Below, one piece after another: positions 4,523-47,018 of a stretch of DNA of 51,075 nt. How positions within the stretch are numbered: position 1 is the first letter of the stretch; each line of letters starts with the position of its first letter. Below the pieces are notes generated by a model. It had not been told where the DNA came from and did not search any database. It worked only from the letters and a program-made list of their open reading frames with translations. The stretch covers positions 1 through 51,075 of the IMG/VR virus record IMGVR_UViG_2872698443_000004; one strand, 5' to 3'. The DNA is from a virus (taxonomy: Duplodnaviria; Heunggongvirae; Uroviricota; Caudoviricetes). The position numbers and the translations under genes are program-made.

Positions 4523-4638
4523 AATAAGACCTCAACTCTTTTCCATCCGTCACGTAATTTACGGGTGATTCGTTCAAGTAAAGATTCATTTAGTTGGAAG
4601 GCACCCATGCGAGCGCCTCCCGCGATTGCGTAAATCAT
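4507..4638 (-). CDS. cIII: CIII-like protease inhibitor (43 aa)
   Basis: MIYAIAGG...ESLLERITRKLRDGWKR matches lambda CIII core; AAGGA SD. Confidence 0.65.
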   Translation of the reverse strand: MIYAIAGGARMGAFQLNESLLERITRKLRDGWKRVEVLLCAMK

Positions 4639-4662
4639 GGGTGGTTCCTTATGTTGGTTTTA

Positions 4663-5631
4663 TTAGTAGGTTATTTTTGTTGCGAATACTTCGCCTTTTA
4701 CGATGGCTGTTATGATATTTTTAGCAACATCTTCTGATGCGCCAACCTTGATAAGGTCAGCAAGTATTTTGTTATTTACTTCTTTCCGGTGAGCTTTATC
4801 CTTTGCTCTACGCTCTTCTTCGTCCTTGATTCTTTTTTCTTCTGCTATTCTGGCTTGCTCTTTTGCTTCAGCTTCGCGCCGGATTCGTTCAGCCTCCTCC
4901 TGTGCTTTTCGGCGTTCTGCTTCAATTGCCGCCTGCTTTTCTCTTTCAGCTCGTTCTGCTGCCTCTTTTGCTTCGCGCTGTGCTCGTTGCTCGGCTTCAA
5001 TGCGTTCACGCTCTGCACGTTCCGCTGCGGCCTTAGCTTCTGCTTCTCGCCTTGCTGCTGCTTCAATTTCGGCTTTTGCCTTTGCTTCGGCTTCAGCTCT
5101 GGCTTTCTCTTCAGCTTCTCTTTTTAAGCGTTCTTCATGCTCTCGCTTTTCCTGCTCCGCTTTGAGTCTTGCCTCTTCTCTTTGGCGGTCAAATTCGCGA
5201 TCCATCAAAATCGCTATTTCATGGTCAGACTCAATTTGCTTTGCGAGAGCTTCAGCTGCTGCCTTAGCTTCTTCTTCGGCTTTAATTCGCGCCTGTTCTT
5301 CCTCATAATCAGTAAGAGGCTGGCGCGCCTTGGCTTTCAGTTCATCAAGGCGATCACGCACTGTCTTGCGGTTGGCATCAATTAGCTTTGGAATTTCCTT
5401 CAGTTCAGCAACAAGGTCTTTGCCAAGACCATCGAGATATGTTTTCGTCTGCGCAACTTTATACGCCAGAGAAGCGATCTCCTTTCTGCCCTTTGCCGTT
5501 GTGATATCAGGCACAAAGGACATAACTTCACGTTCAACCTTTTGGAGAATTTCTTCAATCTGGTCAGCAGACTGAAATACAATCATTGCATTTGCTTTTT
5601 CAATAACAACTAAATCTGTTACTTCACTCAT
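4663..5631 (-). CDS. Hypothetical coiled-coil protein with long E/A/K/R-rich repeat region
   Basis: 322 aa; GGAGGA SD; central ~150 aa of AEAKAKAE/REAEEK-type repeats; first gene after tL1-like terminator. Confidence 0.6.
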   Translation of the reverse strand: MSEVTDLVVIEKANAMIVFQSADQIEEILQKVEREVMSFVPDITTAKGRKEIASLAYKVAQTKTYLDGLGKDLVAELKEIPKLIDANRKTVRDRLDELKAKARQPLTDYEEEQARIKAEEEAKAAAEALAKQIESDHEIAILMDREFDRQREEARLKAEQEKREHEERLKREAEEKARAEAEAKAKAEIEAAARREAEAKAAAERAERERIEAEQRAQREAKEAAERAEREKQAAIEAERRKAQEEAERIRREAEAKEQARIAEEKRIKDEEERRAKDKAHRKEVNNKILADLIKVGASEDVAKNIITAIVKGEVFATKITY

Positions 5632-5643
5632 ATATCCTCCATC

Positions 5644-5669
5644 AAAAAAATGCCCTCACACTGGAGGGC
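5644..5669 (-). terminator. Rho-independent terminator (tL1-like)
   Basis: Hairpin GCCCTC-ACACTG-GAGGGC with 7-nt U-tract on minus strand. Confidence 0.5.
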
Positions 5670-5762
5670 AAAGAAGATTTCCAATAATCAGAACAAGTCG
5701 GCTCCTGTTTAGTTACGAGCGACATTGCTCACATAGCAGACTCGTAAATCTGCTATAGGCGC

Positions 5763-5921
5763 TTATTCGCATCGCATGACAACATCAAATTTTTCGAGAT
5801 TACTTTGTCGCAACAATCCTTCTTCTACTCGGTCAGCTTTTCTATAATTATCAAATTCGAAGTGTTTAATTACTTCTTTTGTTTCTCGCTCTATAACTTC
5901 AACGATGTATCTCTTATTCAT
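5763..5921 (-). CDS. Small hypothetical protein (52 aa)
   Basis: ATG overlaps TAA of upstream gene (TAATG); not in ORF track (<60 aa). Confidence 0.35.
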   Translation of the reverse strand: MNKRYIVEVIERETKEVIKHFEFDNYRKADRVEEGLLRQSNLEKFDVVMRCE

Positions 5922-6190
5922 TACTCATCACCTAGGGCTTTTTTGATAGCTTCGCGAGCCTTATTAACAGCTCCATACCATTCTGGATATGTTGTCGTTG
6001 TTCTATTTTCGGCTTGCTTAAGTAATAACTGAAGTGCTTCAAGTAAATCCGGTGCAGCCATAGCCAACCTTCCATTTGCTACGGCCTCTTCTGTTTCTTT
6101 ACCGGATAGGGCCATTCCAGGGTGTGAAAATAAAATTAAGCCTGCAAAATTGGCTTCTCGCCAATTTTTCCTAGTACCTTTAAATTCCAT
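5921..6190 (-). CDS. Hypothetical protein
   Basis: 89 aa, AGAGG SD. Confidence 0.45.
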   Translation of the reverse strand: MEFKGTRKNWREANFAGLILFSHPGMALSGKETEEAVANGRLAMAAPDLLEALQLLLKQAENRTTTTYPEWYGAVNKAREAIKKALGDE

Positions 6191-43466: not shown

Positions 43467-44525
43467 GTGCGTGCCGATAAGTCATTAAGCCCGTTTGAAA
43501 TCCGGGTATACCGCCATTACCGCATTGTGCATGGTACTCGGGTCGCGCTGGCATTCCTGCTCACTTTTCTCATTATCCGCCTGTTTACTATCCCGGAAAG
43601 CACCTGGCCGCTGGTCACCATGGTGGTGATTATGGGGCCAATCTCGTTCTGGGGTAACGTTGTCCCTCGCGCCTTCGAACGTATTGGCGGTACGGTGTTG
43701 GGTTCGATTTTGGGTCTTATCGCTCTGCAACTGGAGTTAATTTCGTTACCGCTGATGTTAGTCTGGTGCGCGGCGGCGATGTTTCTTTGCGGTTGGCTGG
43801 CGCTGGGCAAGAAACCGTATCAAGGATTATTGATTGGGGTGACGCTGGCAATTGTTGTTGGTTCCCCGACAGGTGAAATTGATACGGCGTTATGGCGAAG
43901 CGGCGATGTGATCCTCGGCTCTTTACTGGCAATGTTGTTTACCGGTATCTGGCCACAACGGGCGTTCATCCACTGGCGCATTCAACTGGCGAAAAGTCTG
44001 ACCGAGTATAATCGGGTCTATCAATCTGCATTCTCACCGAACTTACTCGAACGCCCACGTCTGGAAAGCCATCTACAAAAACTCTTGACCGATGCCGTGA
44101 AAATGCGTGGGCTGATTGCGCCCGCCAGCAAAGAAACTCGTATTCCAAAATCGATATATGAAGGTATCCAGACCATTAATCGCAATCTGGTTTGTATGCT
44201 GGAGTTGCAAATCAATGCATACTGGGCCACGCGCCCCAGCCATTTCGTGTTATTGAACGCGCAAAAACTTCGTGATACCCAGCATATGATGCAGCAAATA
44301 CTGCTGAGCCTTGTTCATGCGCTGTACGAAGGTAATCCGCAGCCGGTTTTTGCCAATACGGAAAAATTGAACGATGCTGTGGAAGAGCTGCGTCAGTTGC
44401 TGAATAACCACCATGACCTGAAGGTTGTGGAAACACCAATCTATGGTTATGTGTGGCTGAACATGGAAACGGCACATCAGCTTGAGTTGCTATCGAATCT
44501 GATTTGCCGGGCCTTGCGCAAATAA
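43467..44525 (+). CDS. yeeA: Inner membrane protein YeeA
   Basis: 352 aa multi-TM; GTG start with GGAG SD; synteny sbmC-yeeA-yeeX. Confidence 0.8.
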   Translation: MRADKSLSPFEIRVYRHYRIVHGTRVALAFLLTFLIIRLFTIPESTWPLVTMVVIMGPISFWGNVVPRAFERIGGTVLGSILGLIALQLELISLPLMLVWCAAAMFLCGWLALGKKPYQGLLIGVTLAIVVGSPTGEIDTALWRSGDVILGSLLAMLFTGIWPQRAFIHWRIQLAKSLTEYNRVYQSAFSPNLLERPRLESHLQKLLTDAVKMRGLIAPASKETRIPKSIYEGIQTINRNLVCMLELQINAYWATRPSHFVLLNAQKLRDTQHMMQQILLSLVHALYEGNPQPVFANTEKLNDAVEELRQLLNNHHDLKVVETPIYGYVWLNMETAHQLELLSNLICRALRK

Positions 44526-44696
44526 TTCCTGAACTTCAGAATCATCTTGCTGCTGCTTCGATTCAGCAAGGATAAAGGGTATGATAGTGAAAAGGGATAA
44601 AAGCATTGTCATCTGCGGCAGCTATGAGTAATGTTGGCCCTAACGAATAGCGGTTGCTTAAACGAATCCGACTCTCACATTATCAGGGGTATAAAA

Positions 44697-45026
44697 ATGG
44701 AAACTACCAAGCCTTCATTCCAGGACGTACTGGAATTTGTTCGTCTGTTCCGTCGTAAGAACAAACTGCAACGTGAAATTCAGGACGTTGAGAAAAAGAT
44801 TCGTGACAACCAGAAGCGCGTCCTGTTGCTGGACAACCTGAGCGATTACATCAAGCCGGGGATGAGCGTTGAAGCAATCCAGGGCATCATCGCCAGCATG
44901 AAAGGTGACTATGAAGATCGCGTTGACGATTACATCATCAAAAATGCCGAGCTCTCCAAAGAACGCCGCGATATCTCCAAAAAGCTGAAAGCTATGGGCG
45001 AAATGAAAAACGGCGAAGCGAAGTAA
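44697..45026 (+). CDS. yeeX: YeeX (UPF0265 family)
   Basis: 109 aa from ATG 44697; downstream hairpin GAGGGTTGCC-CG-GCAACCCTC. Confidence 0.8.
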
Positions 45027-45126
45027 TTCCCGTTTTATTCAATGAGGGTTGCCCGGCAACCCTCATTGCTCATTGATTCTTATCTGTGTATCACCGTCAT
45101 CATTCTCATCTGAGAACCTGTCGAAA

Positions 45127-45309
45127 TTAACAACAGCCTTCTTCTGTATGCAGCAAGGCAAAAAGTTCTGTAACTCCATTGTTATTAACTGCACTGGTTA
45201 CTAACACGTTGTGCGCTCCAGCTTCCCGTAACCAACTTTTCACCAAAGATATTTGTTCCATGCTGGCTAAATCTGCTTTGGTTACTACTCCAATGACCGG
45301 GTGATTCAT
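45127..45309 (-). pseudogene. yoeF: EutP/PduV-like GTPase C-terminal fragment (yoeF-like)
   Basis: Only C-terminal ~60 aa (VIGVVTKADLA...) look protein-like; N-terminal part of track ORF is antisense to a transposase remnant. Confidence 0.4.
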
Positions 45310-45368
45310 GGCCCGGTAGGGCGTTTTTACCTCTAATTCCTGCTTCAGCGCTGAGATTCCTGCTTGTT

Positions 45369-45509
45369 GCCGGAAAAGCAGGCACCTGCCGTCTGAACGG
45401 TATCGATCCGGAAGCGTATCTGCGCCATATTCTGAGCATACTGCCGGAATGGCCCTCCAACCGTGTTGACGAACTCCTGCCATGGAACGTAGTTCTCACC
45501 AATAAATAA
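45369..45509 (+). pseudogene. Transposase C-terminal remnant
   Basis: Open frame ending ...GIDPEAYLRHILSILPEWPSNRVDELLPWNVVLTNK; no start or N-terminal part; followed by hairpin. Confidence 0.4.
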
Positions 45510-45923
45510 GCGTCAATACGGTGCTCCGTTGACGCTTACTTTAATCCGTTTTCTGAGCTTAGATTTTTCTGTTCCTACCCAGACCGTGGATTTGGAATTC
45601 ATTTTTTGTCAGGTCAATGCTAATCGTTAAAACGGCCATAACGCACCTCCACTGGAAGGTTTATCAGTAATATCCTACCGTTGCTTCATGGTCGGGGCGT
45701 CCATTCCATTATTATCGGTTTTCCTTTCTGTTTATAAATGAAAACGCCAGCTGTATTCAGGCTGGCGTCAGGGGAAATGAAGCCTGTTGAGTGAGATTCA
45801 CCGGTTCTGGTGCAGAAGCTGCAGATGGCGCAGGGTAAGGACATCTTCTCTTGCCTGCTTAATACAGGACAACAGTGCTGTTTCTGTGGTTAATGGCACT
45901 ATACCCTGCATCACTGCATTGTC

Positions 45924-46118
45924 TTACAGCAACTGGTGAGGGCTGGCATAAGTTGCCGGTGTTTCGGTAGAGTCACGGTCATCCACCACGCGGAGTGAAT
46001 AACCTTTTTCAGCGGCCTTATTAATCAGTTCAGTGATATTAACACCATCAATGTCAACGACAATGTGCCCCATATCCAGCGCCTGTACGTTAACGCTGTC
46101 GGCTTCCAGTGTCATCAT
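45924..46118 (-). CDS. yeeW: YeeW-like protein
   Basis: 64 aa; start overlaps cbtA stop (ATGA). Confidence 0.75.
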   Translation of the reverse strand: MMTLEADSVNVQALDMGHIVVDIDGVNITELINKAAEKGYSLRVVDDRDSTETPATYASPHQLL

Positions 46119-46488
46119 TTCGCCTCCGGATACTTACCCAGGGTAATGTTATTTACCGTTCTGTAATTGTCGCGGGTCATCAGGCCGGTCGCCCTGCGAG
46201 CCCGGAGGATATCGATGCTGTTTATTAACTGAGAGCGGGTACAGGCGCTGAATCCCGGCTGGTCGGTAGCACCAGCGCGTATTTTTCCACGAGAAAGTTC
46301 ACCGCATCACACAGTGAAATGCCTGCCTCAATATGCTGCTCAATCACACGTTCATCGGCAAAAGGTGTGTCATTCAGTGTGAGGCCATAGTGCTGGTCCA
46401 GCAGTCGGGACAGCAGTATCTGCCAGATTTCAACAGGAGACGGGCGAGAACTGGTCGCCTGCCCGGGTAATACAGGTAATGTTTTCAT
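46115..46488 (-). pseudogene. cbtA: CbtA (YeeV) toxin gene, frameshifted
   Basis: N-terminal 73 aa read normally then 14 out-of-frame codons to a stop at 46225; recognisable C-terminus continues in another frame down to 46115. Confidence 0.7.
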
Positions 46489-46576
46489 ACTGAAGATTTT
46501 CCTGATATGCAGATATAAAAATGGAAAAGTGGCGTGGTGAAAACACCAGGCCGTAGCAGAAGGCTATTCTGGAGAG

Positions 46577-46945
46577 TTAATTTTTCATTTCGGGCGTCGG
46601 ATAAACAGCCAGATAAACGTAACCACAACTGCTGAGGGTATCGGCTTTGCAGGTCAGCCCTTTTGCATACAGCGTGACGGTATGCTGATGGCGGGGATTC
46701 AGTTCACCGCTGGTGAGCATGAGTTCCAGTTGTTTCATCAGCAGCGGAAAGGCCTGGTCCAGGTGGTACGCATCTGCATCGCTGAACAGGCCTCTGATAC
46801 CGGCGCGGTCGGCAAGGTAATGCAACCGGTTACCCTCCTGCACCAGACGTGCCCCGAAACAGGGCGTCACGGTGCAGGGCAGCCCCCACCAGGGGCGGTC
46901 GTGATTGTCGTCGGGAAGTGTTGTCCCGGGGAGTGTGTCTGACAC
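46577..46945 (-). CDS. cbeA: CbeA (YeeU) antitoxin
   Basis: 122 aa, intact. Confidence 0.85.
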   Translation of the reverse strand: MSDTLPGTTLPDDNHDRPWWGLPCTVTPCFGARLVQEGNRLHYLADRAGIRGLFSDADAYHLDQAFPLLMKQLELMLTSGELNPRHQHTVTLYAKGLTCKADTLSSCGYVYLAVYPTPEMKN

Positions 46946-47018
46946 GATAAAATCCTTACAGAAAATCGGCTAAGAATGGTCCGGTAGTGGCGATAATTCT
47001 GCTCATCAGAATTCCCAC

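Follow-up and report, generated by a model that had tools for sequence, protein, structure and literature searches.

The window, which is the whole stretch of 51,075 nucleotides analysed here, is E. coli chromosome and carries here the genes sbmC, yeeA and tmaR (yeeX) in that order, followed by a series of truncated gene pieces and the genes of a CP4-44-type island (Table 1). The preliminary description had pointed out two of these pieces, the C-terminal ~45 codons of a transposase on the plus strand and the C-terminal ~60 codons of a EutP-like GTPase on the minus strand, and had interpreted them as scars of old insertions and deletions. Similarity searches bore this out: by Pfam and alignment the first is the last 42 codons and the stop codon of an IS66-family TnpC and the second is codons 88-147 of pduV, neither belongs to an intact gene, and both are truncated remnants at the edge of the island. 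The two had also been said to be directly adjacent, which is wrong, as they are separated by a 71-bp piece of a third gene (DUF4942). With this piece, and with a stub of an IS110 element following the IS66 stub, there are thus four nested remnants and not two, and the layers of the scar are, to judge from homology, pduV', DUF4942', IS66' and IS110'.

Table 1. Features at and around the scar, with positions in the window.
Feature	Position	Strand	Description
tmaR (yeeX)	44697..45026	+	Intact backbone gene, converging on pduV'; PGAP annotation transferred from K-12 by coordinates
Palindrome	45040..45068		29 bp, GC-rich, between the convergent stops of tmaR and pduV'
pduV' (K-12 yoeF core)	45127..45309	-	Codons 88-147 of the 147-codon EutP/PduV GTPase gene, with stop
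DUF4942'	45310..45380	-	Codons ~40-63 of the terminal island gene; DNA colinearity with L002 and L009
IS66' (K-12 yoeD)	45381..45539	+	Final 159 bp of an IS66-family element
IS110'	45540..45710	-	5'-terminal 171 bp of an IS110-family element (1370 bp, degenerate)
DUF4942-DUF957 intergenic region and DUF957 3' fragment (45798-45890)	45711..45890	-	84.7% identity to L009 3692-3860
yeeW	45924..46118	-	Next island gene; N-terminal domain only of a DUF5983 protein (Pfam DUF5983_N, E 7.8e-29)

The same remnants are found in K-12 MG1655, which is 99.4% identical to positions 44900-45800 over 901 bp and has the same feature boundaries and breakpoints, with tmaR on one side and DUF957', yeeW, cbtA and cbeA on the other; nothing substantive sets the window apart, the strain differing by a few SNPs. 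At this locus PGAP annotates in K-12 a 60-aa "EutP/PduV family" CDS and a "transposase domain-containing, missing N-terminus" pseudogene, and labels DUF957 "incomplete". We take the K-12 pseudogenes yoeF and yoeD to be the EutP/PduV and IS66 fragments described here. The name yoeF is further backed by a 118-aa ORF across the remnants, an exact match to the UniProt "Uncharacterized protein YoeF" of UTI89, and by the "yoeF" gene label of one database match (H43).

In gene order the island end resembles islands of the CP4-44/CP4-57 type (...cbeA-cbtA-yeeW(DUF5983)-DUF957-DUF4942), with 85-91% DNA identity to the intact island end of plasmid NZ_CP010123, but in the window this end is eroded, since only ~24 codons of DUF4942 and a 3' fragment of DUF957 are left and the IS110 and IS66 stubs are embedded in it. 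Another sign of the erosion is yeeW, which has 64 aa with DUF5983 N-terminal part only, compared to 162 aa in an intact related island (L009). Further in, cbtA (46225-46488, minus strand), which encodes the toxin of the type IV toxin-antitoxin pair CbtA/CbeA, lacks 1 nt near 46268 relative to K-12 and has a frameshifted product of 87 aa instead of 124 aa; the antitoxin gene cbeA (46577-46945) looks intact. The other, cobU-proximal end of the island falls outside the window.

The palindrome next to tmaR has the arms AATGAGGGTTGCC-CGG-GGCAACCCTCATT and was found by self reverse-complement BLAST in every strain compared, pdu+ and pdu- alike. It is probably a shared terminator hairpin of tmaR and pduV', and was passed over by a simple terminator scan because it has no T-run.

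The pduV remnant and its intact counterpart

The minus-strand piece translates as MNHPVIGVVTKADLASMEQ...HTEEGCC and a stop, 60 codons in all. It matches positions 86-142/143 of Pfam PduV-EutP (PF10662; E 5.9e-13, 49.3 bits against a cutoff of 21) and aligns to residues 88-147 of the intact 147-aa PduV. At the same position in FDAARGOS_1260 (L008), a pdu+ E. coli reference strain, stands a full-length 147-aa gene, with pduU, pduT and the remaining genes of an entire pdu operon after it, the gene order being ldtA-cobTSU-riboswitch-pocR-pduF-pduA...pduV-tmaR. The window and the pdu+ strain are colinear across tmaR, the palindrome and the 3' end of pduV at 96.7-97.4% DNA identity, and the likeness ends exactly at 45309; a diverged pduV continuing past this point was ruled out, as protein alignment shows none.

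Intact E. coli PduV has its P-loop (GPSQCGKT) at residues 10-17 and the DTPGE motif at residues ~46-50. Both are within the missing residues 1-87, and hence pduV' is incapable of acting as a GTPase. As an orthologue of PduV from the propanediol-utilisation microcompartment, the fragment still has the TKAD (G4-like) motif together with the C-terminal helix region, but it differs from the EutP/PduV family in starting at residue 88, without the P-loop, the switch motifs and the length of ~145-160 aa, and in its location, as no pdu operon lies upstream and no pdu genes stand beside pduV' in the window.

In the pdu+ reference strain itself (L008 27893-28638) the cbi genes are absent, and only cobUST, a gene for a 145-aa hypothetical protein and a cobalamin riboswitch are found beside pocR; cobS is frameshifted. 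Exogenous corrinoid would therefore be needed for Pdu function in this strain.

The DUF4942, IS66 and IS110 fragments

The origin of the spacer between pduV' and IS66' was seen from two E. coli strains, 13081 (L002) and G47-1 (L004), and from intact islands found by a distant search against plasmids, in which both ends of the L002 segment meet without a gap over a gene for a DUF4942 protein. The spacer is 98% identical to the two strains, where the sequence runs on for ~110 bp to the DUF4942 ATG, and has 76% DNA identity to the intact DUF4942 gene of L009. Positions 4403-4593 of L002 correspond to the first ~64 codons of that gene (74.5% DNA identity to L009), and the L002 ORF matches the DUF4942 N-terminus by BLASTP (E 5e-16). 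The DUF4942 domain (PF13708) covers residues 87-275 of the intact 281-aa protein, and codons ~40-63 kept in the window lie upstream of it. Two other origins of the spacer were rejected. An origin in cob-pdu DNA, for example upstream of cobU, was looked for across 47 kb of that region in a pdu+ strain and gave no match. A 3' non-coding (bridge-RNA) end of IS110 does not fit because in L009 both the spacer and the sequence that continues it make up the 5' end of DUF4942, and the 1370-bp IS110 element lies beyond that end.

At the junction of the two genes, pduV reads ...GGGCGATTCAT followed by TGACG, DUF4942 ...CCTGTTTCAT followed by GGCCC, and the window ...GGGTGATTCAT followed by GGCCC. Codon 88 of pduV is joined in frame to codon ~63 of DUF4942 within a shared 5-bp microhomology, TTCAT. 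In strains of the L002 type the scar is a 121-aa in-frame chimeric ORF of DUF4942 residues 1-61 and PduV residues 88-147. This ORF (L002 4228-4593) carries the RefSeq name "EutP/PduV family microcompartment system protein" and occurs on at least 1000 contigs. The junction of DUF4942 and IS66 in the window (45380/45381) is, on the other side of the spacer, blunt and without microhomology, and the IS66 endpoint is inside tnpC.

Plus-strand translation of 45300-45509 ends in ...GTCRLNGIDPEAYLRHILSILPEWPSNRVDELLPWNVVLTNK and a stop, and its part 45381-45509 is the 42 codons of TnpC with the stop codon. The stub matches Pfam DDE_Tnp_IS66_C (PF13817; E 1.5e-15, 57.5 bits against a cutoff of 30), and 40 of its 42 residues agree with the C-terminus (489-530) of an intact 530-aa TnpC (L011), whose catalytic domain DDE_Tnp_IS66 occupies residues 189-479. 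After the stop, 30 nt lead to an intact right terminus ...GACGCTTAC (also ...CCGTTGACGCTTAC) at 45539. Inverted repeats of the IS66 family begin with GTAA, and so does that of the stub, which follows the C-terminal element. Over precisely 45381-45539 the identity to IS66/ISEc23-type copies is 96-99%, including the TnpC end and the terminal inverted repeat ending GTAAGCGTCAACGG (reverse complement). Compared to intact ISEc22/ISEc23-type elements of ~2.5 kb (tnpA-tnpB-tnpC), the stub keeps 159 bp and lacks the DDE domain, tnpA, tnpB, the left inverted repeat and an 8-bp target duplication; the homology starts abruptly at 45381, upstream of which are DUF4942 and pduV DNA. The plasmid copy H20 was discarded as a reference, being itself a deleted IS66, and H21/L011 were used instead. 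At the junction with IS110 (45539/45540) the stub ends in the same terminus as the intact copy and the two sequences part right after it, a hallmark of genuine transposition, here into the IS110 transposase gene.

The IS110 stub consists of a 71-bp leader and the first ~33 codons of the transposase gene, which starts at 45639 and reads MAVLTISIDLTKNEFQIHG... It is colinear, at 93-95% identity, with L002 5793-5963 and with L004 from 4181 onward, annotated by PGAP as an IS110 transposase pseudogene. In L002 the whole insertion (4594-5963; 1370 bp) lies immediately upstream of the DUF4942 ATG, and L009 has the empty site. The L002 element is heavily decayed with many stops, and its C-terminal part matches Pfam Transposase_20 (E 8.7e-11). 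The ~33 N-terminal codons in the window contain neither a DEDD N-terminal domain nor Transposase_20, and a Pfam search of the 26-aa ORF within IS110' matched nothing. In the 1370-bp element the inverted repeats are sub-terminal (GGACGCCCCTACC / CAGGGGCGACC), and the 3' non-coding part is 270 bp long. Megablast turned up no intact copy of it in E. coli; the nearest relatives on plasmids, in Photobacterium, share ~73% identity with it. In G47-1 (L004 3001-4350) the IS110 element is further separated from the DUF4942 fragment by an IS100 insertion.

Distribution and proposed history of the scar

The population counts come from megablast against 5426 complete E. coli genomes. The query 44900-45800 was found in 5422 of them and the full window arrangement, with query coverage of at least 80%, in 3174 (58%). 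The 3' end of pduV was present in 5410 genomes, intact pduV-pduU in 644 (12%), and the junction of DUF4942' with pduV in 4181 (77%), with an uninterrupted IS110 in 633 of the latter. An exact-match scan across 185,579 species, one genome each, found the pduV/DUF4942 junction only in records of E. coli/Shigella and in two MAG contigs. One of the contigs, JAJXBQ010000329.1 (L013, "Segatella copri" MAG), shares 99.2% identity with E. coli along 2342 bp and is thus a mis-binned contig. The other, JADFIX010000334.1 (L014, "Planctomycetota" MAG), matches E. coli (100%) in its first 405 bp alone and so looks chimeric. In a minority of E. coli a gene for a DEAD/DEAH helicase abuts the pduV remnant at ~45301, or yeeR does so at ~45230 (H18, H19), and these variants would indicate additional independent rearrangements at a hotspot. 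Previously, pdu has been reported as repeatedly gained and lost in ST372 E. coli, tied to the neighbouring O-antigen region (PMC9997745), and yoeF has been found immediately beside cobU in some STEC strains (PMC5359238), both of which are consistent with the locus being a recombination-prone boundary.

As shown by the comparison with pdu+ strains, the ancestral backbone at the site is tmaR followed by a convergent pdu operon ending in pduV, and in most E. coli the operon has been lost, with only codons 88-147 of pduV left. For the later events we infer the order from the extant intermediates, strains 13081 and G47-1 being less deleted and retaining codons 1-63 of DUF4942 together with the whole 1370-bp IS110 pseudogene. 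The first step may have been an illegitimate, microhomology-mediated deletion or replacement that fused the island end to pduV and removed everything from pduA through pduV codon 87. An IS110-family element would then have entered directly upstream of the start codon of DUF4942 and later decayed, and an IS66-family element could have inserted into codon ~33 of its transposase gene. Finally, a deletion of ~3.6 kb, with endpoints at IS66 tnpC codon 488/489 and DUF4942 codon ~39/40, would have taken most of IS66, most of IS110 and the start of DUF4942 (codons 1-39), and left the 159-bp IS66 tail between the 71-bp DUF4942 fragment and the 171-bp IS110 head.

Coding status of yoeF and position of the island edge

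A catalytic or nucleotide-binding domain is kept in none of the four fragments. An Rfam search of the window positions 44000-47000 and of L002 4200-6100 (E<=1, E<=0.1) matched no family, and the promoter and terminator scan gave nothing above shuffled expectation. We consider it very probable that the region is a non-functional, multi-layered rearrangement scar at the junction of the E. coli backbone and a CP4-44-type island, and the 60-aa and 118-aa yoeF ORFs are most likely meaningless read-through of the scars.

It could be argued that yoeF is a real small gene, its 60-aa or 118-aa product being expressed and having gained a function, for example in modulating the Eut microcompartment through its likeness to EutP. 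Across thousands of genomes the ORF stays open, with 96-100% conservation, the 183-nt frame of pduV' still being open in 14 of the 14 truncated copies examined, and it is listed as a protein by UniProt and by PGAP, which annotates pduV' as a CDS and not as a pseudogene. In addition, as the fusion of DUF4942 and pduV is in frame, the ORF of L002-type strains inherits a genuine start codon. However, the conservation is the same as that of the surrounding non-coding DNA, and the P-loop and switch regions of the GTPase are missing. The N-terminal extension varies with the strain type, made up of DUF4942 codons 1-63 in the L002 type and of antisense IS66 in the window and K-12 type, and hence yoeF has no conserved upstream coding or promoter context; a minus-strand promoter-like site is absent upstream within 45310-45700. 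Among the unique substitutions between pduV' and intact pduV, 10 were non-synonymous and 2 synonymous, a small sample of 12 sites from copies that are not phylogenetically independent, and this is the pattern expected without purifying selection. A functional small gene is thereby highly unlikely. With the frame open in all copies examined, the translation of a pduV' peptide as such keeps a very small probability. Less probable still is that the in-frame chimera of DUF4942 and PduV' (121 aa in the L002 type, 60 or 118 aa in the window) is translated and its PduV C-terminal module retained for microcompartment or other partners; if this were true, yoeF would be a domesticated gene fragment instead of a scar.

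In the literature searched, yoeF was met with in gene lists only, without a discussion of its origin. The y-ome paper lists it within the "CP4-44 prophage region" (PMC11551758), and the fragment is physically contiguous with island genes, so the EutP-like piece could be taken for DNA of the prophage or island, with the boundary between tmaR and yoeF. Against this, pdu+ strains free of the island carry the same 183 nt (96.7% identical) as the 3' end of an intact pduV, with the complete pdu operon beside tmaR, the segment is present in 5410 of the 5426 genomes whatever lies beyond it, and in the related islands that are intact DUF4942 is the last gene and a EutP/PduV gene is absent. An island origin of the piece thus has a very slim chance of being right. 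Least probable of all is an origin from the eut operon, by duplication or transposition of part of eutP, for although Pfam does not separate EutP from PduV and many database entries call the fragment "ethanolamine utilization protein EutP", it is colinear at the nucleotide level with pduV-pduU-pduT at the very same locus, and the pduV-pduU query matches a median of one place per genome, meaning that the eut operon is not cross-matched at the megablast level.

The EutP-like fragment is, judged by this colinearity, specifically the tail of pduV and belongs to the chromosomal backbone rather than to the island, which sets the island edge at 45309/45310. The preliminary description had located both fragments at the island boundary; the boundary is indeed nearby, but its exact edge moves to this position and leaves the pduV piece outside. 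In the public annotation of the yoeF/yoeD locus, the 71-bp DUF4942 piece and the IS110 stub are unlabelled, and yoeF is grouped with the prophage though it is backbone.

The scar is made of ordinary, already annotated pseudogene fragments that are present in most E. coli including K-12, and for biology at large it matters little. As yoeF is what remains of the pdu operon of the chromosome and not prophage DNA, the CP4-44 boundary belongs at the junction of pduV' and DUF4942'. Annotation pipelines still call the 60-aa stub a protein, which could be corrected to a pseudogene. The identical TTCAT junction, found in ~77% of the complete genomes, gives a clean marker of the pdu-loss allele, while the ~12% that are pdu+ carry the undeleted allele. 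The nested IS110 and IS66 stubs, with surviving intermediates, provide a neat case of stepwise erosion at the edge of an island.
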